From the NCBI GenBank assembly GCA_965200155.1, contig CBDATR010000024.1, forward strand, positions 64,001 through 128,000: a stretch of DNA of 64,000 nucleotides. Direction: 5' to 3'. Made by a program: the position numbers and the translations under genes. Under the pieces are notes generated by a model, which was not told where the DNA came from, made no database searches, and was given only the letters and a program-made list of their open reading frames with translations. This DNA comes from Nitrosopumilaceae archaeon (GTDB lineage Archaea; Thermoproteota; Nitrososphaeria; Nitrososphaerales; Nitrosopumilaceae). This document shows positions 19,070-32,969 of this stretch, piece by piece; positions within the stretch are counted from its first letter, which is position 1; each line of letters begins with the position of its first letter.

Positions 19070-20815
19070 TTATTTGACTTTCTTTTGCTCCCGGTACAGT
19101 TTTACTATCTGTATTACGTTGGTGGCATCCTGGGGCATCTTGTCGTGACGTATGCGACCGGTAAATTTGGGAAAGCGTAATGCCAACCCTGCACCCTGGT
19201 GAATCACATCCATGGCCGTGGTATGCACCGGACTTATTGTTATCTCTGACGCAGTAACCTCTATGATCACGTCCGGAGCAAACCATACGTCTGCCTTCAT
19301 GCCGCTGTCTATCTGCGCATCGGGCTTTGGTATTATGTGAGCAGACAGAATTTGGTATAACATGTCCAGCATTTCATCGGTGAAACCGGTTCCCACTTTA
19401 CATATGCTTGTGAATATGTCCTGCTCCTCGTCATATGCGGCCAGCAGCAATGTGCCATATATGCCTGTACGCCTGCCCCGGCCGTGAAATGCCCCTATAA
19501 CAACCAAGTCCAGACTCTCCCCGGCCCCGTCCTTATACTCTCGTTTCAGCTTTAGCCACAGACTACCCCTGGATCCCGCTCTATACGGACTATCCGGTAA
19601 CTTGAGCATTAGTCCCTCGCCACCGGCGTTTATGCTGTTCTCCATGCAGTCCATCAACTGGCCCTCGTTTACTATGCGCGTCATGGGTACTAGCCTTGCC
19701 ATCCCTTTTACGATAATATTGTCCTGTAACCATTGGCGTCTGCGGGTATAGGGTGCATCCAGGTATGATGTTCCATCTGCGTATAATATGTCAAAAAAGT
19801 TTATCACTACCGGATAGTCCAGGACCGCCTGCTCTATGCTATGCTTTCGTCGGCGATGCATGAGTTCCTGGAAGGGGAGAAAATCTCCGGTGTCCCGATT
19901 TATTGCCACTGCCTCGGCCTCAAGTATGGCCTCCTTGGCCCGTACTTGGGTTGGTATATTCTCCGCTATGTCCGGGTACTGTCCTGTGATTCGCTCAAGA
20001 CGCCTGGAAAATACCTCTATCTTTTCGCCCATGTGTATTTGTACCCGTTCGCCATCAAGCTTGTACTCTGCAGCGAAATTCTGGGACATCTTTTCCAGGG
20101 CATCCGTTTCGTTGCGTACACGCTCAGCCAGCATGGGGCGAACCGGGCTATACATTTGAATACCAAAAGTCTCAATATTGTTTAATCCGTCTTTCGCGGC
20201 AGTCGCGGCCACTCTTCCCAAATCACTGCATACGTTGTATGCTTCCTCCAGCTTGGTCCTGTTGGATCTCTGGCCAGTGTACGCCTCTGCCAAGGCGTCT
20301 AGTATGGTATTCTCGGCTACGCCCAACCGTAGCGTTCCTAGCAGTATCTTTAGTATGAATTTGGATTCCAGGGGCGTTGCATCGTTGAGCATGCTGGATA
20401 TGTGCTTTATCTTTATGTCTTGGGAGCGGGACCCCTCTATGTGTGCCAGTTTGTATATTGTGTCATATACACGGCTTACACTTATCTCTTGGGTCAGGAA
20501 TGTAGTCTGGGTCTTTGTACTAAGTATGGATGATGCTACGGCGCCCAAGTCCCCCTGCTCCGCATACGCGCCCTCTATACTCTTTAGCGTCGCGCCTGAT
20601 GATTTTGCTATGGCGCGCATGACCATCTTGTCCGCCACTCTTGGCTCTATACCCTCGTAGTCCGGTCTCACCTTGCCCTGCAACAGGTACGTGGTCTGCC
20701 CTACCAGTTCTATTGGTGTCTGCTGGAATAACTCTACCAGATATGCGGTAAGATCCAATCTCTTGGTAGTATGCTCCATCTTCTCCAGATATCCTGCCAG
20801 TACGGAGAATTGCAT
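19070..20815 (-). CDS. lig: ATP-dependent DNA ligase
   Basis: EYKLDGER, EGLMLK, WLKLK, LRFP; start set at MQFS. Confidence 0.97.
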   Translation of the reverse strand: MQFSVLAGYLEKMEHTTKRLDLTAYLVELFQQTPIELVGQTTYLLQGKVRPDYEGIEPRVADKMVMRAIAKSSGATLKSIEGAYAEQGDLGAVASSILSTKTQTTFLTQEISVSRVYDTIYKLAHIEGSRSQDIKIKHISSMLNDATPLESKFILKILLGTLRLGVAENTILDALAEAYTGQRSNRTKLEEAYNVCSDLGRVAATAAKDGLNNIETFGIQMYSPVRPMLAERVRNETDALEKMSQNFAAEYKLDGERVQIHMGEKIEVFSRRLERITGQYPDIAENIPTQVRAKEAILEAEAVAINRDTGDFLPFQELMHRRRKHSIEQAVLDYPVVINFFDILYADGTSYLDAPYTRRRQWLQDNIIVKGMARLVPMTRIVNEGQLMDCMENSINAGGEGLMLKLPDSPYRAGSRGSLWLKLKREYKDGAGESLDLVVIGAFHGRGRRTGIYGTLLLAAYDEEQDIFTSICKVGTGFTDEMLDMLYQILSAHIIPKPDAQIDSGMKADVWFAPDVIIEVTASEITISPVHTTAMDVIHQGAGLALRFPKFTGRIRHDKMPQDATNVIQIVKLYREQKKVK

Positions 20816-20832
20816 AATCTGGTGTATAATAT

Positions 20833-21309
20833 TCAGATATAACGATATATGGTGGGCTTGTCGTCTTTTGCGTCTGAGACCAATGCAAAGTTGTGTAGTG
20901 GGTACCTCTCTTTGTGTTGTTTCATGTAGCTCCATGCCACATCATGATTCCTGAAACTCGTTCGCAGTCCATCTATGGTTGTCACCTGTCCGTATACATC
21001 GAATATTACTATCCTATAAGATCGCGGTCTGTATCTGGGCTTTGCGCGTAACAGCCACGCCATAGCAAATACAAAGACCGCACCAAGTATCACACTGCTA
21101 ATGGCAACCTTGAGAAAGCTCTGAAATACGCCGGGGACCGTATTCCCAAATACCATGAGTAATACGTTTGGGATTGTACTACCAAATATTACCAGAACCA
21201 CATTGGCAAAGGCTACTGTAGCTACCGCGGTTATCATGTACCCTTTCCATGACCATATGTGGGAAACAGTAGACAAAATGTTGCTCAATAACACATTACG
21301 GTGACTCAT
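20833..21309 (-). CDS. Hypothetical membrane protein
   Basis: Two TM segments plus soluble C-terminus; tight spacing to fbp and lig. Confidence 0.7.
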   Translation of the reverse strand: MSHRNVLLSNILSTVSHIWSWKGYMITAVATVAFANVVLVIFGSTIPNVLLMVFGNTVPGVFQSFLKVAISSVILGAVFVFAMAWLLRAKPRYRPRSYRIVIFDVYGQVTTIDGLRTSFRNHDVAWSYMKQHKERYPLHNFALVSDAKDDKPTIYRYI

Positions 21310-21310
21310 G

Positions 21311-22441
21311 TCAGTCCGGATCCTCATACTGTTCTTTACGAGTAATCTTGACAGAGTCACGCTCCTGCATCTTGTCCGAGAGACCTTTCATACGCGCCTT
21401 GTACCCTTCGGCATATTCCAGCTCACTGGGAACCAGCGTTGCCGGATGAACAAAGCCCTGGCTACGTATTGCTATTGCCCTTTCAGTAGCTATTCGCCTT
21501 ATTACATCCCAGTCCGGCGTGGAGAACCCATCAAAGGGGCCTGTGAACATGCCATTGTGCATACTAAATACGGCGGCCTCCACTATGGGTATGCAGAAGT
21601 TTATGGTGGCTGCAGAGTTCAGAGTAACGGGCATCAGTGGCATATTGTGACTCCCCCGTGTGTTTCCTGCTACTAGGTGGGGGTTATTGAATACGCTACC
21701 CGCTTCCTCGGTGGCGGGGAATCTCTTTTGTGTCCGGACTATGCATATGGGATCATCCTTGCCCACATATGTCCCCGCTATATTGTGCAGACGATCTGTA
21801 GATGCCGCAAGTATGGGCTCGTCATCTTTTGTGGTCACTGACTCTATTACGTATCGGCCCGGATACATCAGGGCCGCCTCGAGTAGTGGTTTGTCCCCCC
21901 ACAGGTCGAGGGACGCAACCCTGCCCTCCTCTACGTCCATAATGTTGAATCGTACGCCTTCTGCCAGTGAATTATTGACTATAAGACCGGTGTTGCTTAT
22001 TGCATCCACAAATAGTCGGTACATGGGATAATTGAACGCTCCCGGTTCTGTCTTGTCCGCGGCGAACACAACAAACGCCTCGTTTGCCCTTTCCTCGAAT
22101 TCCATCTCCGCGGCTCCGGGCCCCATACCCTTTACGTTTCCAGAGAAGGAGTCGCTGAGCAGATCCTGGCCTGCACCATACAGACCCTGATTCCTGGCCG
22201 CTTGTGTACCTGCCATAAACGCGTCCCATACCAAGCCGTGTATGTCCTGATTATCCGTTCCCTTGGTATGACTCATTATGATATGGACATCATCGCCACA
22301 GTATCCTATGTAGTAATCTAGGAGTATGTCCTTTGAATCCTGTACGGTATCCCGAACAGCATTGAGTAATCTGTCGCTGGGTCTGGTATGGCCACCGATT
22401 CCTCCCACGTCTGCCTTTATGGCCGAGACCGTTATTTTCAT
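21311..22441 (-). CDS. fbp: Fructose-1,6-bisphosphate aldolase/phosphatase (class V)
   Basis: KADVGG, GLYGAGQDLL, DKTEPGAFN, YVGKDDP, RGSH. Confidence 0.97.
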   Translation of the reverse strand: MKITVSAIKADVGGIGGHTRPSDRLLNAVRDTVQDSKDILLDYYIGYCGDDVHIIMSHTKGTDNQDIHGLVWDAFMAGTQAARNQGLYGAGQDLLSDSFSGNVKGMGPGAAEMEFEERANEAFVVFAADKTEPGAFNYPMYRLFVDAISNTGLIVNNSLAEGVRFNIMDVEEGRVASLDLWGDKPLLEAALMYPGRYVIESVTTKDDEPILAASTDRLHNIAGTYVGKDDPICIVRTQKRFPATEEAGSVFNNPHLVAGNTRGSHNMPLMPVTLNSAATINFCIPIVEAAVFSMHNGMFTGPFDGFSTPDWDVIRRIATERAIAIRSQGFVHPATLVPSELEYAEGYKARMKGLSDKMQERDSVKITRKEQYEDPD

Positions 22442-22606
22442 TGTATTGTTTTGCCATATACTTTGATTTATTTGTTGAATTTTGGGACTCTGCTCCGCGT
22501 ATACTGTATGGCTATGCTGGGCATCCCATACCTGCTTGGCGGTTCTCTGATGATGTGGCGAACGCACTTGCCGCGCGTAACATTGTCCGGGATTTATGCC
22601 ATGAAT

Positions 22607-22991: not shown

Positions 22992-25900
22992 CTATATTTC
23001 GTAGGGCCTGATGGAGTCTCGGGTAGTCTTGTTTGTTCTCATCCATTCTAGCGTATTGATGAAAGCGTCCGCCAACTCCACCGTAGTAAGAACGGGTATG
23101 CCCAGTTCCAGTGCCTTCCGGCGAATCTGGTATTCGTCCTCCAGCATACCCACATACTTTTCCAGCGTACTGGTACTGGGTATGTTTATGATAAAGTCTA
23201 CCTCGCCTTTATACAACAGATCCGCGATATTTGGCTGCCGATCAGGCTCAGATATCTTGTGCACCACCTTGATGGCGCCCAGTTTCTCCTCGAAGAATTC
23301 TGCGGTATGCTCTGTGGCCAGTATGTTGAATCCCATGGGTATGAGTTTGGCTATGCTGGGCAGCAACACTTCCTTATTCCGCAGGCCTCCTGCAGTTACA
23401 AGAACCGTACCATTTGTGGGCAGGTTATACCCCACTGCAATCAACCCTTTTGTGAGCGCGTCATAAAAGCTCTCTCCAAAACATGCAGCCTCGCCGGTTG
23501 AATGCATCTCCACACCTAACGTTAGATCCGCGCCCTCCAGCTGCATAAACGAGAATTGTGGTACCTTTATTCCAAAGTTGTCGAGATGCCGCCATTTCTC
23601 CACGGGAATGTCCGAGAGGGCCTCACCCATTATGGCCTTGGATGCCAGCGTTATCAGGTTCATCCGTATCAGTTTCGACACAAAAGGCATGGAGCGTGAT
23701 GCCCTGACGTTCAATTCTATTACGTATGCAAGATCGTCATGTATCAAAAATTGTAGGTTAAATGGTCCCCGTATGTTAAACGTTCTGGCTATCTTGGTGG
23801 AATACTCGGTTATTGTCTGGATGATCCTGTTACTCAGCCTCCATGGCGGTATGCACATCATTGCATCTCCGGAATGCACGCCAGCACTGTCTATGTGCTC
23901 CACTATGGCACCTATGATGACATTATTCCCGTCTGATATGCCATCTACATCCACCTCCAGCGAGTCCATCATGAACTTGGATATCACAACAGGGTGATCT
24001 GGCGATACGTTGGTTGCTTTCTGGGCGTATGTCTTTAGCTCCTCGGCAGACCAGACCACTTTCATTGCCGCTCCTGAGAGTACGTATGAGGGTCGCACTA
24101 GTACTGGAAATCCTACCTCCTGTGCGAACGCGCGCGCCTCTGTTATCTTGGAGAATGCCTGCCAGGATGGTTGCCGAATGTGAAGCTTGTCCATCTCTGC
24201 ACTAAACTTGGAACGATCTTCTGCGCGATCAATATCTGTGGCCGAGGTGCCCAGTATGCGTATGCCCGCGGCGGCCAATCCCGGAGTGAGGTTGTTGGCT
24301 GTCTGCCCGCCCACGCACGTAATTACTCCCTGGGGGTTCTCAAATTCGGCGATATCTCTTATGCGTTCGTGGGTGAGTTCCTCAAAGTACAGCCTGTTGC
24401 ATATGTCATAATCTGTGGATACCGTCTCCGGATTGCAGTTGACCACCACCGCGGGCGTATTGTTCTGTGCGCGTATACCCCAGACCATATTTACCGTGCC
24501 CCAATCAAACTCCACACTACTGCCTATGCGGTATGGACCGGCACCTACCACTATCACTGCACGCTCCTGCGGCTTTGGGATATCGTGGTCTATTCCGCCA
24601 TATGTCATGTATAGATAGTTCGTGGTAGCGGGCCATTCCGCGGCAAGGGAGTCTATCTGCTTGATGTATGGTTGTATGCCCATGCTTTGGCGCAACTGCC
24701 GTACGTATTCCTGATCCTGGGATATGGCACGTCCTATCTGGGAATCGGAGAATCCAGCCTTTTTGGCCTCCTCCATTAGGGAAGTATCCGGAATGCCCTC
24801 TCTCAGGCGGCCTGACACCTCCACTATGTGGCGGAGCTTCTCGACAAACCATGGGTTTATGGACGATAGTTTGGCTATGCGTTTGGTGTCAAATCCGTGC
24901 ATTATGGCGGCGCACACCAAGAATAGTATGCTATCATCAAAGTGGGTCAGCCTGTACTCTAGGTCCTCTTCGGTATACTTTGCCATATTCTGGCGGTTCA
25001 GCACCAGTCCGTCGGCCCCAATATCCAGCATACGTACCGCCTTTTGTACTGACTCCTCGAACGTATGGCCTATGCCCATCACCTCGCCCACCGACTTCAT
25101 GGTGGGTCCAAGCTTTCGCTCTACCAAGTCAAACTTTGCAAAGTCCCACCGGGGATGCTTGCACACTATATAGTCCAGGGATGGCTCAAAACAGGCCGTC
25201 GTCTTCTTGGTTATGGCATTGCTCATCTCGTGCAGACTGTAGCCAAGGCCTATCTTTGCAGACATGTATGCTAGGGGGTACCCTGTAGCCTTGCTTGCCA
25301 GTGCTGATGAGCGTGAAAGCCTGGGGTTGACCTCTATGGCTACATACTTTTCAGAATCAGGATCCAACGCAAACTGTATGTTACACTCTCCCACTATGCC
25401 TATATGATCCGCCGCCCGGAGGCCCGCGGATCTCAGCATGTGGTACTCCCGGTTGTTGAGTGTCTGGGATGGGGCCACGACTATATTGTCTCCTGTATGC
25501 GCCCTCATGGATAACACATTCTCCATGTTACATACAATTACACCGTTTCCTGTGGCGTCACGCATTATTTCGTACTCAATCTGTTTCCAGTCGCCTATGT
25601 ATTCCTCTATCAGTACCTGGCCTACCATGCTGGCCTTTATGCCTCGTTCCACTATTTCGTGCAGCTCCAATTCGTTGTGGGCTACCCCGCCGCCCTTGCC
25701 GCCCAGTGTATATGCCACTCGTATTATAACCGGGTATCCAAGCGCCTCTGCCACGCGTTTTGCGTCATCAAATCCCGTGACTGTCTCGCTGGGGAGCACT
25801 GGTACGCCACACTGTATCATGGCATCTTTGAATCGTTGTCTGTCTTCGGTCATCTGTATGCCGCTTATCTCTGTCCCCAACACTCTTACACCATATTTCT

Positions 25901-26248
25901 CAAGAATGCCATCCTCGTACAGCTTGACACCGCAGTTAAGGGCGGTCTGGCCCCCGTATGAGAGCATTATGGCATCGGGCCTCTCCTGCTCTATCACTGA
26001 TTCAACGTACTGGGGCGTAACAGGTAACAGATACACCTTGTCCACGAACCGGGTATCTGTTTGGATGGTAGCGATGTTTGGGTTTATCAGTATGCTTCGA
26101 ATTCCATCTTCCTGTATGGCCTTGAGACATTGACTACCGGAGTAGTCGAATTGGCGGCCGCTTAAAGGCGACTTTCGCCGGCTTCTCCGATCTTTATTGC
26201 CCCACTGCCTAATACCAGTATGCTATTCAGTGTATCATCTTTGGGCAG
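22992..26248 (-). CDS. carB: Carbamoyl-phosphate synthase large subunit, two exons (26248-26174 and 26150-22992), 1077 aa if spliced
   Basis: Exon 1 (CTG)PKDDTLNSILVLGSGAIKIGEAGE joins exon 2 FDYSGSQCLKA... in frame once 23 nt are removed; both ATP-grasp halves and the MGS domain are intact. Confidence 0.93.
26151..26173 (-). other. Putative bulge-helix-bulge/loop pre-mRNA intron (23 nt) in carB
   Basis: GGCG-AA^A-GUCGC-CUUUAA-GCGGC-CGCC-AA^U; 4-bp central helix, 3-nt bulge, 5-bp intron stem; carries an in-frame UAA. Confidence 0.85.
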
Positions 26249-27356
26249 TGCTTCCCTCCATCATTTTTTGCAGCTCCGCAAAGACAAACTCGCAGTCATA
26301 CGGACCAGGGGATGCTTCGGGATGAAACTGTACCGCTATGCACGGCTTCTCCTTGTGTCGTATACCTTCTACGGTGTTGTCATCGGTGTTTATGAACCAT
26401 AAGTCAAACTCCGAATCGGCCAGCGAATCGGTGTCTATCGCGTAACCATGATTCTGGCTGGTTACGTATACCTGGCCATCGGCCACATTCAGGCAGGACT
26501 TGTTCTGGCCTCGGTGGCCGTACTTTAGCTTGTATGTCTGTGCCCGTCCAGCCAGGCCAATTATCTGGGCGCCTAGACATATTCCCAACGTTGGGATGCC
26601 ATTATGTATCAGATTTTTGGCGGTGTTTATGGTATCCGGGCAATGTTGTGGATCGCCGGGTCCATTACTCAGTATGACACCAACAGGATCATGTGATAGT
26701 ATTTCCTCAATGGGTGTGTTATATGGCACCCTTACTGCCTTGTATCCCATTTTTACAACATTCCGGAGTATTGCATTCTTGATTCCCGCATCTATGACTA
26801 CAATGCTGCGCCCTTTACCATACTCCACTGCCTTGTCCACCGATACCTTCTCTACCAGCCTCTCCATTCCATATCTGGGCGCCTTATCCAGCTGGCTTTT
26901 GAGCTTCTCAACATCAATGGGATCCTCAGATACCGCCAAGGCAGCCATACGTACCCCGCTAATGCGAAGAGACTTTGTCAGTGAACGGGTATCAATACCG
27001 GATATTCCCGGAATCTTTTGGGAGTGCAACCACTGGTCCAGGGTCATTTCAAGACTCCAGTGACTGGCCGTCTCAGATATGCTTTGTACAACCAGCCCCC
27101 GTACCTGTATGCGGTCAGACTCAAAGTATTCAGTAATCCCGCTCTCGCTTACCTGATCAGGATTGGGAATCCCGTAGTTGCCCACCAGCGGATATGTTAT
27201 GGCCAGTATTTGTCCCCCGTATGAGGGATCAGTTAGTGTCTCTGTATAACCAACCATTCCAGTGTTGAATACGGCCTCGCCAAATACTGTCGTTGGATAC
27301 CCAAAACCCTGGCCCTCAAGCACTGTACCGTCATCCAGTATCATGCAACCGTGCAT
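26235..27356 (-). CDS. carA: Carbamoyl-phosphate synthase small subunit
   Basis: FNTGMVGY, SNGPGDP, GICLG, SQNHGY, QFHPE. Confidence 0.97.
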   Translation of the reverse strand: MHGCMILDDGTVLEGQGFGYPTTVFGEAVFNTGMVGYTETLTDPSYGGQILAITYPLVGNYGIPNPDQVSESGITEYFESDRIQVRGLVVQSISETASHWSLEMTLDQWLHSQKIPGISGIDTRSLTKSLRISGVRMAALAVSEDPIDVEKLKSQLDKAPRYGMERLVEKVSVDKAVEYGKGRSIVVIDAGIKNAILRNVVKMGYKAVRVPYNTPIEEILSHDPVGVILSNGPGDPQHCPDTINTAKNLIHNGIPTLGICLGAQIIGLAGRAQTYKLKYGHRGQNKSCLNVADGQVYVTSQNHGYAIDTDSLADSEFDLWFINTDDNTVEGIRHKEKPCIAVQFHPEASPGPYDCEFVFAELQKMMEGSTAQR

Positions 27357-27714
27357 ATTCGTGTAAGTGGACTTTTTTGTGGTTATTTTAAACCCTCATG
27401 AAGTACAAGGAACTAGAAATTTAAACGTAACAACCCTTGGCTCACTCCATATTGTGGACGCGTTCATGCATTGGATATTTGGTGAAATGCGCACAATTTG
27501 TTGACAAGATTTGGTCTGTAGTCTGAATTTGTCACTATATTATACCGGAATAGATCTACCGAGAATGTTTCATACACCGCAAGTGTCTGATAATCACGGG
27601 ATTTGACGAAATACTGATTTTGTATCTTGTGCGCCTAGCCGGTATCATGATAGCCTAAAGTGTGTTCTGAGTGCCATATACTGGCATCTTGGCAGATTTC
27701 TATGCGCCAATAAC

Positions 27715-29014
27715 TAGTTTGCTGCATAACTCCAAACAAGTTAGATTAGAAATATGTGAGGAATGGTTTGAGTATTTTCGTTCATTCTGTCAGTGATTAC
27801 TAGATTGGATCCAAGCATTAATAGCTGAGATTTTTTAAACAAACTTGATGGTATTCACCGACAATGCCAAGTACGTCCAGCGGAAGGCTATTTGGCTTTG
27901 ATCATGTATGGGATTGAAAAGGCCAACCATAAAGGAGGGTGCTCCCTGCCAGTATGCAGTGGGCATATTACATGACACTGAGAACGGCATTAGGTATGAG
28001 ATACAGGCAGGTATCCGGATTCCTTGCAGGACTACTGGAAAGGCACCAAACCCCGTACTACTCCACTATACAGACGCGGAAGAGATTGGCATAGACAAGG
28101 GGAATGACATGATTATTGGCACAGACAAAAAGCTGACTAGAACCATGATTGTGGACTCGACCGGCCTTGAATCGTGGTGAGTGGATAAGAGCCAAATGGA
28201 AAAAGAGGCGCGGATTCATCAGTGCTCGCGGACTGGGAGAGCATATGCATTTACGGTTACCGGCGAGTGGGTTGGGGATACGCGCATGTTAAACAATGCA
28301 GTACTGGGCTCGTATGCAGAAGAGCCACAACTGGACAGGGAGCACACCCTGGAATTGGAAAGTTCCGGACCCATTGCAACAGTTGCCATTTCTGGCAGGA
28401 TCAACAGATAAGCCACCACCCGGAAACGCGCTGACTAACGGTGTGTCCCCCTTATCTAATAATGATGAAAAGCGCGCATTTAATCTGGAATTACTTGTGG
28501 ATGACACATACGCATCCAGGGATAACATGAAATTGTGCAGTCATAATCGAATCCGGACAACCATTCCACTTCAGCTAAATTCCACCAAAGGAAAGGCAAC
28601 TCATGGGGACTTGCAGTCTTGGAGGAAGTCCGGAATCGCCCATTTTCCATGTGAGTTCACCTGTGTCTAAATTTACGCACAACTGATCGCGACAGTTAAT
28701 GTGATTTGTGCATAAGATTCCGGAAGACGTGAACTCATACCATTTTCCGCCTTTCTGATGAGGAAAAGGTTGAAAACAAGCAGTACTGGAAGGCGGCAAA
28801 AGGATACAACAGGCGATGGATAATTGAGATGATCAGAGTCGATTCCCGTTCAAACGATTATTCGGGCACGGATTAATGGAGAGGAAATGTGATAACATAG
28901 TACAGGAAATCACAATGAGGGTAGCCAAGTACAACGAGTGGGTGGACGCGGCAGCAACGTAGATCACGACATGGGGAACCTGTATTCTGTCAAAGTCAGT
29001 TATGCAACAAACTC
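27715..29014 (+). mobile_element. Degenerate IS5-family (IS903-like) element with pseudogenised transposase
   Basis: TIRs AGTTTGCTGCATAACT / AGTTATGCAACAAACT; fragments IVDSTGL, DDTYAS...IP; many stops and frameshifts. Confidence 0.75.
28649..28740 (-). mobile_element. IS66-derived MITE (92 bp), copy 2
   Basis: TSD CATTTTCC; lies inside the IS5 remnant. Confidence 0.93.
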
Positions 29015-29021
29015 CAAATAA

Positions 29022-30063
29022 TCAATAGTACGAAAAGTAAGTCCGCTTAGGATCCGGCGTACAGTAGCTGACTATTTCAGATTGCACAAGCCAGATGGTA
29101 AAGAGAATAACAGAGGAATCAAGACAGTACATCATAAGACAACGCAAAAGAGGCGTTGCCGCCACCAAAATAGCTCAAGACCGGAACATCAGTTCAAGAC
29201 ATGTACGAAGATTGTGAACCAGAGAACGGGAACGACTCGAGTAAAGATGGGCAGGCCTATTATACCAATCACCGCCACCCAGATACGAATGGTAACTGAA
29301 GCATATCACAAGGATCCCGCCGGAGTAGTATGTATTGCAAAGAGGCTTAGACAGAATTACAATATATCATATCGCGCAGTATATCGCATAATGAAAAAGA
29401 ACGGTACGGCAGGATCATCACCTGCAAAGTCAAGAAGACGAAAGTGGGTACGCTATGAGCGTAAATATTCCAATGCAATGTGGCACGTAGACTGGCATGT
29501 CATGAAAGATGAGCGCTTCAAGGGACTGAATCTCATCACATACCTTGATGATGCATCTAGGTGCATCGTCGGAGCGGCACTATTTGAGCATGCAACCTCA
29601 GAGAACGCCGTTCTATTACTGAGACTGGCGATAAAGAGATTCGGCGCCCCTGCATCCATACTATCGGATAACGGCGCGTGTTTCGTAGGACAGAATAGTC
29701 ACAAAAAGGGCAAAAAGAACTGGAAACCCACACTATTCGAGGAAGAACTGCTGGATCAAGACATCATACTAATCAATTCCAGGCCATACCACCCGCAGAC
29801 AAATGGCAAACTGGAGCGCTTCCATAGAACGATTGAGGACGAGGGGACTCTTATTTAAGAGTCCAATGAGATATGGTATTATGACAGTCTCCGGGATTAT
29901 GTGGACTACTACAATGAGAGAAGATTGCACTTCTCACTGGATATAGATAACGGCGAAACGCCGCTTCAGGAATAAAAAGGCGACCCAGACAATTAGGGCA
30001 AATGATGCAAAATGGATGGAGCGGGATACCAATGACTAGCGGACCGACTTTTCATACATTACA
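29022..30063 (+). mobile_element. IS481-family element, frameshifted transposase (ORF 29082-29858)
   Basis: WHVD, YLDDASR, LSDNG, PQTNGKLERFHRT; imperfect TIRs; 15-bp flanking direct repeat ACAAACTCCAAATAA. Confidence 0.88.
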
Positions 30064-30115
30064 ACAAACTCCAAATAACACAAACTCTATAATGCTTGAG
30101 ATATTTTGTCATGTC

Positions 30116-30460
30116 ATGGAAGAGAAACGTGGGTACATTAGTCGCGCCCTAAGTGGGACAGACAAGATTATACGTGAAAGCGTAGCTGCCGCGGATCATG
30201 TCATAGAGGGGGCCGTAGAAACGGGCCGTCCCGTAGCTGAGGAAGTGGGCAAAATCGGTGATCAAATAGGCAGAGATGTTACTAGCGCCTCCAAGTCCGG
30301 CGCCAAAATGGTAATGAATGGCGTGGGCGGTGTAACCGGATCAGTAAAGGGTAACGATGCAGTTGAAACGCTGGAGCGGCTGGGGTACCTGTGGAAGGAA
30401 GGCCTGATTACGGATCAGGAATTCCAAGATGTGAAACGTAGATTATTGGCGCGGATATGA
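30116..30460 (+). CDS. SHOCT-domain protein
   Basis: C-terminal LERLGYLWKEGLITDQEFQDVKRRLL. Confidence 0.75.
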   Translation: MEEKRGYISRALSGTDKIIRESVAAADHVIEGAVETGRPVAEEVGKIGDQIGRDVTSASKSGAKMVMNGVGGVTGSVKGNDAVETLERLGYLWKEGLITDQEFQDVKRRLLARI

Positions 30461-30464
30461 TTTT

Positions 30465-30914
30465 ATGGGAAAGTCTAATATCTTCGGCGCTGATGAGCAA
30501 AGAGAGGTAAATCCTAACTGGTTCACCGATAGAGTCTGGATGAAAGTGTTATCTAATAAAATAGGTGCAGACAAGCAAGATGTCTATCATGTTCACTTTC
30601 CGGGTGGCGCACGCACAAAGATTCACAAACACAATGGATCCCAATTACTTATAGTCACAGAAGGACGCGGGAGTCTGGAAATGTACAAGACAGATGGAAC
30701 AGGGGATGCCTTCGACATAGAGAAACTAGAGGATATACCATTGCTCACCGGAGATGTGGTGCATATACCACAAGATACACTGCACACTCATGGCTCAACT
30801 GATGAATCCAAAATTTTCTCCCATATTGCGATAAATAACAGGCCCTGCGGTGTGGGCGAATATGTAACTCAATGGTACGAGTCCACCGGAAACCAGGTTA
30901 CCGCCAGAATATGA
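30465..30914 (+). CDS. Cupin-domain protein
   Basis: HKH...Q...EG and GDVVHIP...HTHG cupin motifs. Confidence 0.85.
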   Translation: MGKSNIFGADEQREVNPNWFTDRVWMKVLSNKIGADKQDVYHVHFPGGARTKIHKHNGSQLLIVTEGRGSLEMYKTDGTGDAFDIEKLEDIPLLTGDVVHIPQDTLHTHGSTDESKIFSHIAINNRPCGVGEYVTQWYESTGNQVTARI

Positions 30915-31021
30915 TACATGTTATGGCCTTTTTTAACTAATTTTAATAGATTGGATGTATCTGAATCAAAGAATCATATTAAAAACGCGGAAATGTATTT
31001 GATATTTTGTGGTACATTTGG

Positions 31022-31113
31022 GTATGAGTTCACGTCTTCCGGAATCTTGTGCACAAATCACATTAACTGTCGCGATCAGTTGTGCGTAAATTTAGACACA
31101 GGTGAACTCATAC
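31022..31113 (+). mobile_element. IS66-derived MITE (92 bp), copy 3
   Basis: Perfect TIRs, no local TSD; left flank ACATTTGG recurs at 33886-33893. Confidence 0.93.
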
Positions 31114-31268
31114 AGATATTTTTCAAAAATTTCTTGTACCTGGTATGCTTGTGCATAATGTGTAAATTATGCAACCCGGATACTACGAGATCTTCCCGGA
31201 ATTCCTCACGACTGCCATCATATACCTGACTTAATTTACGATATACCTTTAGCATTCGAATTACATGC

Positions 31269-32969
31269 GTATGAGTTCACGTGTTTTGATCATTCACTAA
31301 GATATAGATTGGTATGGCAATATTTTACTTAAATACCAAATTTGCAATAAGAATCTAATGAGAAGACGCCGGTCCTATAAGGAATTGGAACTGGAAAATA
31401 AACTTCTTCAGGATACCCTTGCGTCTATCAAGAAAGATATTGAGGATTACAAGAAAGATCTTGCACATTACAAGGAACGTGTGAGAGTATTGGAAGCATA
31501 TATGTCACACACCATAAAAGAAATACGAAATCTCACACAAGATTTCCAAATTATTAGAAATTATGTAAGTGAATTAAAAGAGGAATTAGTAGAAAAAGAC
31601 AGGAAAATTGTGGTACTCACAACGCGACTTAAATATTATGAGAATGCTCACTCGCCACCATCCCTTCAATCCCTCCAGTACAAGAAGCGAAAACAGGAGG
31701 AGCAGAAGCGAAAACAGGGAGATAATAAGCAACAGAAAGAAGCCAGTACGAAATCAGCCAAAAAGGCTGGCGCTCAAAAGGGACACAAGGGGGTTTCCCG
31801 TTCCCACAACCCCGGCAGAGTAGTGCATCACACCTTTGAGTACACACCAATATGTGAGTGCGGCAATATAATGACAAAAATTGGTTGGAAACAACGACAC
31901 ATAACGGAATTAATACCAGCCAAAATAGAGGAGACCCTTCATGTGATAGAAATGGCTGCATGCAAGTGCGGCAAAAAACAACTGGCCCCAGCAGCTGGCG
32001 TCCCAAAGAGTGGTAGTTTTGGGGTTCAATTATGCGGTGCCATCACTGCATTGCGTGCGGAAAAGATTCCAATAAAACGCATACCTGTAATTTCGAAGGA
32101 TCTCTTCGGCCTAAATATATCGGTGGGTGCAGTAAACAACATAATTGCCAGGGCCGCCGATGCATGTGAATCATTTATGGAAACAATTCATGAGAATATA
32201 ATAAAATCACCCAGCATTCATGTGGACGAAACTGGTATATCACTGGCGGGTAGGCGTGGTTGGGTATGGGGGATGCGGGCCGAAGAGTGGATGATGTCCA
32301 TATATGACAAAAGTAGGAGTTCAAATGTAGTGAACAAATACCTTAACGGTTACCAGGGAGCGATAGTAACGGACAGGTACGTTGTGTACCGCCGGTTTGA
32401 TGACGGTGGGAAGCACCAGTTGTGTTGGGCGCATTTATTGCGCGATACCCAGGCATTACATGCAGGATTCTATATTGATCCCGGTGCTCAGGACACCCGG
32501 ATCAAACTTGACAACGACCTGAAAGGATTGTTCCGGAGCGCACGGGAATCCCTGAATCACTGCGGGCCGTCCGCGCAATTACGACACTCATTTGAGACAG
32601 GAGCAGAATCCATTCTGCATCAGTACTGTGATGTTGATGATACTGAACTACAAAAGAAGGTAAAAGGATTGAATAAGGCCATACCATGCATGTTCGTATT
32701 CTTAGAATATGACAGTGTAGAGCCCACCAACAATCCAGCGGAGCAGTGGAACCGGTTCTGATACGCAGTGGTATTCCGCAAGATTGGTGGCCAGATAAAG
32801 GGTGGCGAAAGGGCCATGCGCCGCATGTCCACATTCGTATCATGCGTTCAGACATGGAGGGCTCAAGGCCTTTCTGTAATGAACGAGGTTGCTGCCAGAA
32901 TGCAGTTATAATTAAAAAAACTGGGACGCATTCTATCTTATTATGTGATCAAAACACGTGAACTCATAC
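31269..32969 (+). mobile_element. IS66-family (single-ORF, ISBst12-like) element
   Basis: TIR GTATGAGTTCACGTGTTTTGATCA; 8-bp TSD TTACATGC. Confidence 0.95.
31358..32911 (+). pseudogene. IS66 transposase with in-frame TGA at 32759-32761
   Basis: Coiled coil, GAQKGH, HVDETG, TDRY, CWAHLLR, PTNNPAE; C-terminal YAVVFRKI...QTW continues in frame after the stop. Confidence 0.9.

Follow-up and report, generated by a model that had tools for sequence, protein, structure and literature searches.

The analysed window is a stretch of 64,000 nucleotides (nt) from contig CBDATR010000024.1 of the Nitrosopumilaceae archaeon assembly GCA_965200155.1, and its minus strand carries the neighbouring genes carA and carB (Table 1). 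The latter (22992-26248) is split between the codons for GEAGE and those for FDYSG by 23 nt, AGUCGCCUUUAAGCGGCCGCCAA (26173..26151). The tail of exon 1, reading ...AUC GGA GAA GCC GGC GAA in the mRNA sense and ending at 26174, encodes ..ILVLGSGAIKIGEAGE, and the frame restarts at 26150, two bases out of register, with UUC GAC UAC UCC GG, coding for FDYSGSQCLK... An in-frame UAA is the fourth codon after exon 1. A preliminary description of this DNA, made from the sequence alone, had presented carB as otherwise intact and broken by a 23-nt insert with an in-frame UAA, which agrees with the window sequence, and had derived a CarB of 1077 amino acids (aa). The arithmetic of the latter is correct, as the gene minus the 23 nt gives a frame of 25 + 1052 = 1077 codons, but this length assumes a start at the CTG at 26248, which the description did not mention. 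The junction peptide of the spliced gene is ..IGEAGEFDYSGSQCLK.

Table 1. Features of the carA-carB junction and elements of the carB intron structure (window positions; the arrow marks the predicted cut).
Feature	Position	Strand	Remarks
carA, glutamine amidotransferase subunit	26235..27356	-	Pfam CPSase_sm_chain and GATase; directly upstream of carB
carB exon 1	26174..26248	-	25 codons, LPKDDTLNSILVLGSGAIKIGEAGE; CTG where relatives have Met; putative start codon
carB intron	26151..26173	-	23 nt, AGUCGCCUUUAAGCGGCCGCCAA; in-frame UAA and NotI site
carB exon 2	22992..26150	-	1052 codons plus stop (22992-22994); begins FDYSGSQCLK
Outer helix, exon 1 strand (CGGAG.AG C)	26181..26189	-	pairs with 26138-26147
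Central helix, 5′ strand GGCG, in exon	26176..26179	-	pairs with 26153-26156
5′ bulge AAA	26173..26175	-	unpaired in both folds; predicted cut after second nucleotide
Intron hairpin, arms GUCGC and GCGGC, loop CUUUAA	26157..26172	-	covariation
Central helix, 3′ strand CGCC, in intron	26153..26156	-	minimum-energy fold, covariation, RNAalifold
3′ splice-site loop AA↓UUC, 5 nt	26148..26152	-	unpaired in consensus fold
Outer helix, exon 2 strand (G.CU.CUCCG)	26138..26147	-	covariation counts, RNAalifold

The exon 1 peptide is conserved in 30/30 loci of the relatives search, that is, in this genome's own carB locus and in 29 relatives. A whole-genome search with exon 2 found no second carB in the draft genome (51 contigs, 87.6% complete); the same query also matched a distant ATP-grasp protein of 490 aa.

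The window stretch was matched in nine public sequencing runs from three studies (Logan contigs), and the region 25700-26600 was compared with contigs of the metatranscriptome runs X6 and X7, of the DNA run X1 from the same study, which is a possible source of this assembly, and of run X3 from another study. The RNA contigs of X6 (3936 nt) and X7 (4361 nt) include the 3′ end of carA, the carA-carB junction and the 5′ end of carB, and 23 letters are missing from them at 26151, this being the sole difference over 901 nt. The contigs of X1 and X3 span the same region with no gaps, at depths of 48.8 and 36.7, respectively, and keep the insert, so that the gap predicted by the preliminary description for RNA and not for DNA was found as such. 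As exon 1 ends with AA and the intron also ends with AA, the gap has three equivalent placements (as given, or shifted by 1 or 2 nt towards the 5′ end of the mRNA) leading to the same product, and with these placements it agrees with the cuts proposed earlier, GGC GAA↓UUC GAC. The dominant natural form of the RNA therefore lacks exactly the predicted 23 nt, which are precisely removed from it in nature.

RNA libraries can contain DNA, contigs drop rare variants, and intron-less carB alleles exist in related species; the RNA contigs might thus stem from a co-resident strain or from carried-over DNA with an insert-less carB, the gap being a DNA polymorphism. Run X5, guessed to be DNA, has a word share of 0.98, equal to that of the RNA runs. 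However, apart from the gap both RNA contigs show no difference from the window over 878 aligned nt, only the insert-bearing form is seen in the DNA contigs of X3 and of X1, the latter from the same study, and all nine other searched species of the genus carry the insert, so this explanation is considered highly improbable.

Among the 30 loci mentioned above, an insert of 20-26 nt lies exactly between GE and FDYSG in 23, and the remaining seven have an uninterrupted GE-FDYSG. To cover the order (Nitrososphaerales) more broadly, a pattern with only the flanks fixed was used, consisting of codons for Ala-Gly-Glu, AG, 10-40 nt, C NNN A N and codons for Phe-Asp-Tyr-Ser-Gly. It matched 213 of the 401 genomes sampled from the order (211/399 after exclusion of the unpublished genomes G273 and G284, both positive), and a control with the pattern read in reverse gave 0 matches. 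These counts are to be read as "found in" and not as "absent from", as many of the negatives are incomplete genomes or have no detectable carB N-terminus, the latter having been detected at E <= 1e-25 in 352/401 genomes. By family, the pattern was found in 88/111 genomes of f15, 71/112 of f1, 40/97 of f10, 9/9 of f4, 2/4 of f13 and in the single genomes of f2 and f3 (1/1 each), with 0/65 in 13 other families. The related loci of family f1 include those of Nitrosopumilus, Nitrosopelagicus, Nitrosarchaeum and Nitrosotenuis, the inserts of the last two being 21 nt long, and large single-contig genomes of family f15 have inserts of 26 nt. Of the 46 genomes in the large genus g14, only 11 carry the insert. 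A looser, phylum-wide pattern (401 genomes), which also demands Ala-Gly-Glu codons and would miss lineages with different residues there, gave one match outside the order, in G458, which turned out to be an uninterrupted coding sequence matched by chance.

A set of 96 distinct junctions was then compiled from the loci of the relatives search, of the pattern search and of a further search started from an intron-less locus, together with 40 regions picked for diversity among the pattern matches; it is not a random sample. The search started from the intron-less locus, in which one pattern spans the junction, returned mainly intron-less and bacterial loci and provided intron-less codons for comparison. 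The inserts in it are 18-32 nt long, with a mode of 21. The lengths of 46 of them are not multiples of 3, and the remaining 50 all hold an in-frame stop, so that every one of the 96 blocks translation. All begin with AG and end with AA (66), AG (20) or AT (10).

An in-frame stop together with the lack of a canonical start codon, in a metagenome-assembled draft of 51 contigs, could point to a decaying pseudogene or to an assembly error. Against this, the 1052 codons of exon 2 form an intact frame, independent DNA assemblies contain the insert, as do the 213 genomes counted above, single-contig genomes included, the intron stem covaries (see below), and the RNA contigs span the carA-carB junction, which leaves either possibility scarcely conceivable.

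The minimum-energy fold of 76 nt around the insert gives the GGCG/CGCC helix, the AAA bulge and the GUCGC/GCGGC stem, all three of which had been drawn in the preliminary description and are reproduced by RNAalifold as well. The 96 junctions, each with 36 nt of either exon, were aligned with MAFFT, and base pairs were counted for the structure proposed there. Standard pairs are formed by 93.2% of the cells against 86.4% in column shuffles, none of 500 shuffles reaching 93.2%, although this control leaves relatedness in and its result is not a probability; sliding the partner by 1-3 columns drops pairing to 18-57%. Changes on both sides of a pair were found repeatedly, in more than one family and involving more than one kind of base pair, as had been predicted along with the same-site inserts in relatives. 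Run without a supplied structure, RNAalifold returns the same fold, namely an outer helix, a 1 x 5 internal loop (A-N↓U-U-Y) containing the 3′ cut, a 4-bp helix, the bulge A-R↓A and a hairpin.

The central 4-bp helix, a hallmark of the bulge-helix-bulge (BHB) motif, is paired in 96.1% of the cells over the 96 sequences, and its pair 33-65 is CG in 93 sequences, UA in two and UG in one, the exon side changing by the synonymous replacement of GGC with GGU. The 5′ bulge has the 3 nt expected of a BHB motif, being A-R-A in 96/96 junctions. The hairpin behind it, of 4-7 bp, covaries, with double-sided changes in five of its six aligned pairs (pair 39-62, for instance, is CG in 52, UA in 36 and UG in 8). 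The outer helix CGGAG/CUCCG is paired in 98.8% of the cells, with one-sided variation only (GC to GU). Here the earlier drawing held in part: the CGGAG/CUCCG segment is indeed paired, but the innermost pair C30-G73 forms in only 45 of the 96 junctions, and RNAalifold pairs the invariant C29 with G73 instead. The consensus fold places the 3′ cut in a 5-nt loop, in line with the bulge-helix-loop form claimed at the outset, and the carB intron belongs to this relaxed class and not to the strict BHB class. No Rfam family matches the region 25900-26400.

Covariation is hardly possible in the exon strands of the structure because they encode invariant residues, so synonymous sites were compared between the 96 intron-bearing junctions and 13 intron-less loci of the same order. 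The Gly codon of IGE is GGA in 91/96 against 1/13, the last Gly is GGC in 93/96 against 1/13, Asp is GAC in 92/96 against 2/13 and Tyr is TAC in 94/96 against 3/13, the sites compared being free in, or outside, the insert search pattern and the contrast being inflated by relatedness. These sites vary freely in 66 intron-less junctions, bacteria included. The direction of the contrast is the one predicted by a structural constraint on the exons.

The canonical rule for EndA, the archaeal splicing endonuclease, is to cut after the second nucleotide of each bulge, and its cleavage leaves 2′,3′-cyclic phosphate and 5′-OH ends and an excised, often circular, intron. In the ten introns ending with AT, moving both cuts by 1 nt in the 5′ direction turns the invariant Glu into Asp, and the placement behind the second unpaired nucleotide is therefore the only one with GE↓F preserved in every one of the 96 junctions. 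Judging by this conservation of the protein, the cuts in carB probably lie after the second unpaired nucleotide on each side.

The genome contains two genes with the endonuclease domain PF01974, one alpha-like and one beta-like, and one RtcB gene (PF01139), located on the same contig as carB just outside the window; the genes for the route by a heteromeric EndA and RtcB, which the preliminary description had assumed, are thus present. The 185-aa PF01974 product aligns end to end with the crenarchaeal structures 3p1z_B, 3ajv_B, 2cv8_A and 2zyz_B (E 3e-41 to 2e-33), and the best match of the 195-aa product, over residues 10-120, is the N-terminal half of the fused enzyme of M. kandleri (Methanopyrus), 5x89, the entry of which is described as "EndA-like protein, tRNA-splicing endonuclease". 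The pair fits an (alpha-beta)2 EndA, with alpha and beta putatively assigned from these matches and from a reading of the catalytic residues. Such an enzyme has been reported for Thaumarchaeota and accepts relaxed motifs; apart from it, only the epsilon2 enzyme is able to cleave substrates of the relaxed bulge-helix-loop class (PMC5829648).

As a control, the tRNA genes of the same genome were inspected, 29 of which were detected in the draft by ARAGORN, three of them intron-bearing; further tRNAs with non-canonical introns may have been missed by this program. The tRNA-Tyr(GUA) gene (C10:530106-530227) has an anticodon stem, an AAA bulge, a 4-bp helix CUGU/ACAG, a 5′ bulge and an intron helix. 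It thus shares with carB the order of outer helix, 3′ bulge, 4-bp helix, 5′ bulge and intron helix, as well as cuts after the second bulge nucleotide. They differ in that the 3′ bulge of the tRNA, adjacent to the anticodon stem, has strictly 3 nt, whereas carB has a 5-nt loop and an outer helix made of coding sequence. The EndA alpha-like gene (C10:531862-532419) is located about 1.6 kb away from this tRNA-Tyr gene.

The link between EndA and the carB substrate is an indirect one, and the 3′ site departs from the canonical 3-nt bulge, so the 23 nt might be removed by some other pair of endonuclease and ligase or by self-cleavage. Nevertheless, a 4-bp helix, a 3-nt bulge 3′ of the helix segment of each strand and cuts after the second unpaired nucleotide are hallmarks of EndA, and the carB motif matches the tRNA-Tyr of the same genome. 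Group I and group II ribozymes are larger than 18-32 nt, so inserts of this size are too small for either, and there is no Rfam match in the region stated above. Removal by a route other than EndA and RtcB is therefore regarded as quite improbable.

Taken together, the precise loss of the 23 nt from RNA, the conserved covarying structure and the presence of the enzyme genes make it very probable that the insert is a relaxed BHB-type (bulge-helix-loop) archaeal intron in the carB pre-mRNA. According to the proposed mechanism, GGCG of exon 1 would pair with CGCC at the 3′ end of the intron, forming the 4-bp helix, with the AAA bulge and the intron hairpin on one side and, on the other, the AA↓UUC loop closed by the helix between exon 1 and exon 2. 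The two-subunit (alpha/beta) EndA would cut the bulge and the loop, each after its second nucleotide, and RtcB would join GGC GAA to UUC GAC, restoring the invariant GEAGE-FDYSG and the 1077-codon frame. On unspliced carB RNA, translation would end after 28 codons.

Several points weigh against this interpretation. The RNA evidence consists of contigs rather than reads and gives neither a ratio of spliced to unspliced molecules nor RNA ends or strand, both RNA runs belong to one study, and an insert-less DNA form is possible in run X5 with its RNA-like word share. The fold of the single sequence barely beats shuffles (z = -1.84, 11 of 200 shuffles being as good). The outer helix has no double-sided compensatory change and is broken in two sequences of family f13, and the 3′ site, a 5-nt loop opposite 1 nt, is not the strict 3-nt 3′ bulge of the hBHBh′ form. 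A canonical start codon is absent before exon 1. Finally, we infer, rather than observe, that EndA and RtcB are the enzymes acting on the carB intron.

It could also be proposed that the insert stays in the mRNA and is passed by the ribosome through programmed frameshifting or bypassing (hopping), a process exemplified by gene 60 of phage T4, as the insert is short and structured and has a stop codon close behind the take-off site, features that may be likened to those of bypass elements. But the dominant RNA form is already without the 23 nt, and the length of the inserts (18-32 nt), their covarying BHB-like fold and the fixed position of the cut sites on it suit an endonuclease substrate, so passage by the ribosome is given hardly any credence.

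The idea that carB splicing acts as a regulatory switch is speculation. In an extended form of it, which appears rather unlikely, GE↓FDYSG would be an ancient recurrent landing site for mini-introns, used in ammonia oxidisers and in distant tiny archaea, and the intron would be kept as a kinetic gate, having been retained in the ammonia oxidisers for hundreds of millions of years. CarB would then be made only from those transcripts on which EndA and RtcB arrive ahead of the ribosomes, the latter unwinding the half of the motif borne by the exons, and the weak carB starts (CUG, possibly AUA, AUU or AUC) together with the carA overlap would act as a timing device.

A close known counterpart in a protein-coding gene is the BHB intron of cbf5 (pseudouridine synthase) pre-mRNA of Desulfurococcales and Sulfolobales (Yokobori 2009, PMC2738675). 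The two introns are alike in being short, lying in the coding frame, having a relaxed motif, occurring in hosts with hetero-oligomeric EndA and being gained and lost in a patchy manner. They differ in the host lineages and in the product, Cbf5 being an RNA-modification enzyme and CarB a core metabolic enzyme, as well as in the basis for splicing, which is reverse transcription PCR for cbf5 and environmental RNA for carB; the carB intron is in addition documented by 96 distinct junctions with covariation. The cbf5 pre-mRNA intron was reportedly also treated by Watanabe in 2002 and by Yoshinari in 2006. Table 1 of the Yokobori paper gives 0 cbf5 introns for Cenarchaeum and Nitrosopumilus (PMC2738675), and cbf5 of the genome studied here is uninterrupted over the TruB_N domain. 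In Haloferax volcanii, the HVO_1309 mRNA has a BHB intron in its 5′ untranslated region, which was cleaved by EndA in vitro (PMC7714728). This mRNA, like that of carB, has an intron of the type processed by the tRNA-splicing endonuclease, the carB one being known here from sequence and RNA contigs; the HVO_1309 intron lies in the untranslated leader of a euryarchaeal transcript, whereas that of carB interrupts the reading frame.

The same 2020 paper mentions only one additional reported BHB intron, that of cbf5 mRNA, besides its own 5′-leader case (PMC7714728), and the reference lists of two other papers, from 2018 (PMC5829648) and 2025 (PMC12397907), cite only the three cbf5 papers for pre-mRNA. 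A 2026 review of non-canonical splicing mentions archaea for tRNA only. In the full-text literature searched, with subscription journals largely outside that search, neither carB nor any protein gene of Thaumarchaeota was found to be reported with an intron. Within this literature, carB is the second protein-coding gene, after cbf5, with a tRNA-type intron.

The order holds the ammonia-oxidising archaea, which are among the most abundant microbes of soil and ocean, and in about half of its sampled genomes CarB, and with it arginine and pyrimidine synthesis, would need the tRNA-splicing machinery. Gene callers will call such a carB truncated, frameshifted or pseudogenic, with possible false auxotrophy in metabolic reconstructions. 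The 96 natural variants provide a ready mutational series for the way in which (alpha-beta)2 EndA reads relaxed motifs, and cultured intron-bearing strains would show whether splicing limits or regulates the synthesis of CarB. Small stop-containing inserts in other conserved archaeal genes merit the same check. A genome-wide scan for the motif itself (a 4-bp helix, a 3-nt bulge and a hairpin, with open frames joined) gave 24,020 instances and 2,045 candidates and is far too unspecific without homology or RNA data.

With regard to the origin of the intron, no gene with the LAGLIDADG_3 domain (PF14528), the one endonuclease family to which the search was limited, was found in this genome, and none lies near carB among 41 relatives, six genomes having matches elsewhere, the nearest about 53 kb off (G033). 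Hence carB is not accompanied by an endonuclease of this family, as would be expected of a mobile cassette of mini-intron and homing endonuclease, and the intron seems to be inherited vertically without a homing endonuclease. In a quick CarB tree, which is midpoint-rooted, weakly supported and includes the false-positive row L186, three intron-less rows of family f1 are interspersed with intron-bearing ones, at forks of weak support, and the intron-less families f5, f7, f14 and f16 branch near the base; no more than two changes are required by the starred branches. Several losses are suggested by this tree. Read most simply, which is not a proof, the intron would have been gained once, long ago, within the order and then lost precisely several times, in particular in the Nitrosopumilus-like genus.

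Metagenomes were also searched for a spliced junction with the codon signature of the intron-bearing lineage, which gave 27 matches, most of them bacterial-looking by best match and residues. Seven insert-less contigs are ammonia-oxidiser-like (L218, L222, L224, L233, L236, L237 and L242), L236 being broken soon after the junction. The other six keep the signature GGA..GGC..GAC TAC TCY. None of the seven is near-identical to a compared intron-bearing genome. Complementary DNA (cDNA) and intron-less DNA are not distinguishable among them, and the signature-bearing contigs are either assembled cDNA or the result of recent precise intron losses.

The beginning of carB deserves separate mention. 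From the upstream stop (26263-26261) to the intron, the frame contains no ATG, GTG or TTG. The TGA stop of carA is 11 nt downstream of the carB CTG, and a GGAGG motif is located upstream of this CTG (26235-26263, minus strand). Among the loci L003-L046 and L187-L215, CTG is found at the start position in 24/75, all 24 of them intron-bearing, and ATG or TTG in 12/15 intron-less against 5/60 intron-bearing loci; these loci are related and partly come from the same genomes, so the counts are not a test. One genus has CTA, AAA or CAA at this position followed by an Ile codon, and the intron-less metagenome contig L222 likewise has CTG. In family f10 (L030, L117, L120 and L122) there is a TGA two codons before the conserved N-terminus, and the first in-frame start is a GTG overlapping the carA stop (GTGA), leaving an exon 1 of only about 19 codons. 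Where inspected, carA abuts or overlaps carB in 15/16 loci, these 15 being the ones with a readable carA C-terminus. The pattern of start codons suggests near-cognate initiation or termination-reinitiation coupled to carA.

An apparent second break was noticed in carB of one single-contig relative, G016 (L021), and rejected as an intron: about 1752 nt beyond the FDYSG codons, a TGA stands in frame in place of an Arg that is conserved in other sequences (..DYDICD*LYFEEL), and the frame continues unchanged behind it. Possible causes are a nonsense mutation, a recoded codon or a sequencing error.

The surroundings of the two genes in the window are as follows. Upstream of carA (27357-32761), about 1.7 kb without an open reading frame of at least 120 aa, in which the short frames have no Pfam match, is followed by a gene for an rve-type integrase (29082-29858) and then by one for an IS66-family transposase (31358-32761). 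Downstream of carB (19070-22567) there are genes coding for a class V-type fructose-1,6-bisphosphatase (FBPase_3) and an ATP-dependent DNA ligase, both of them ordinary.

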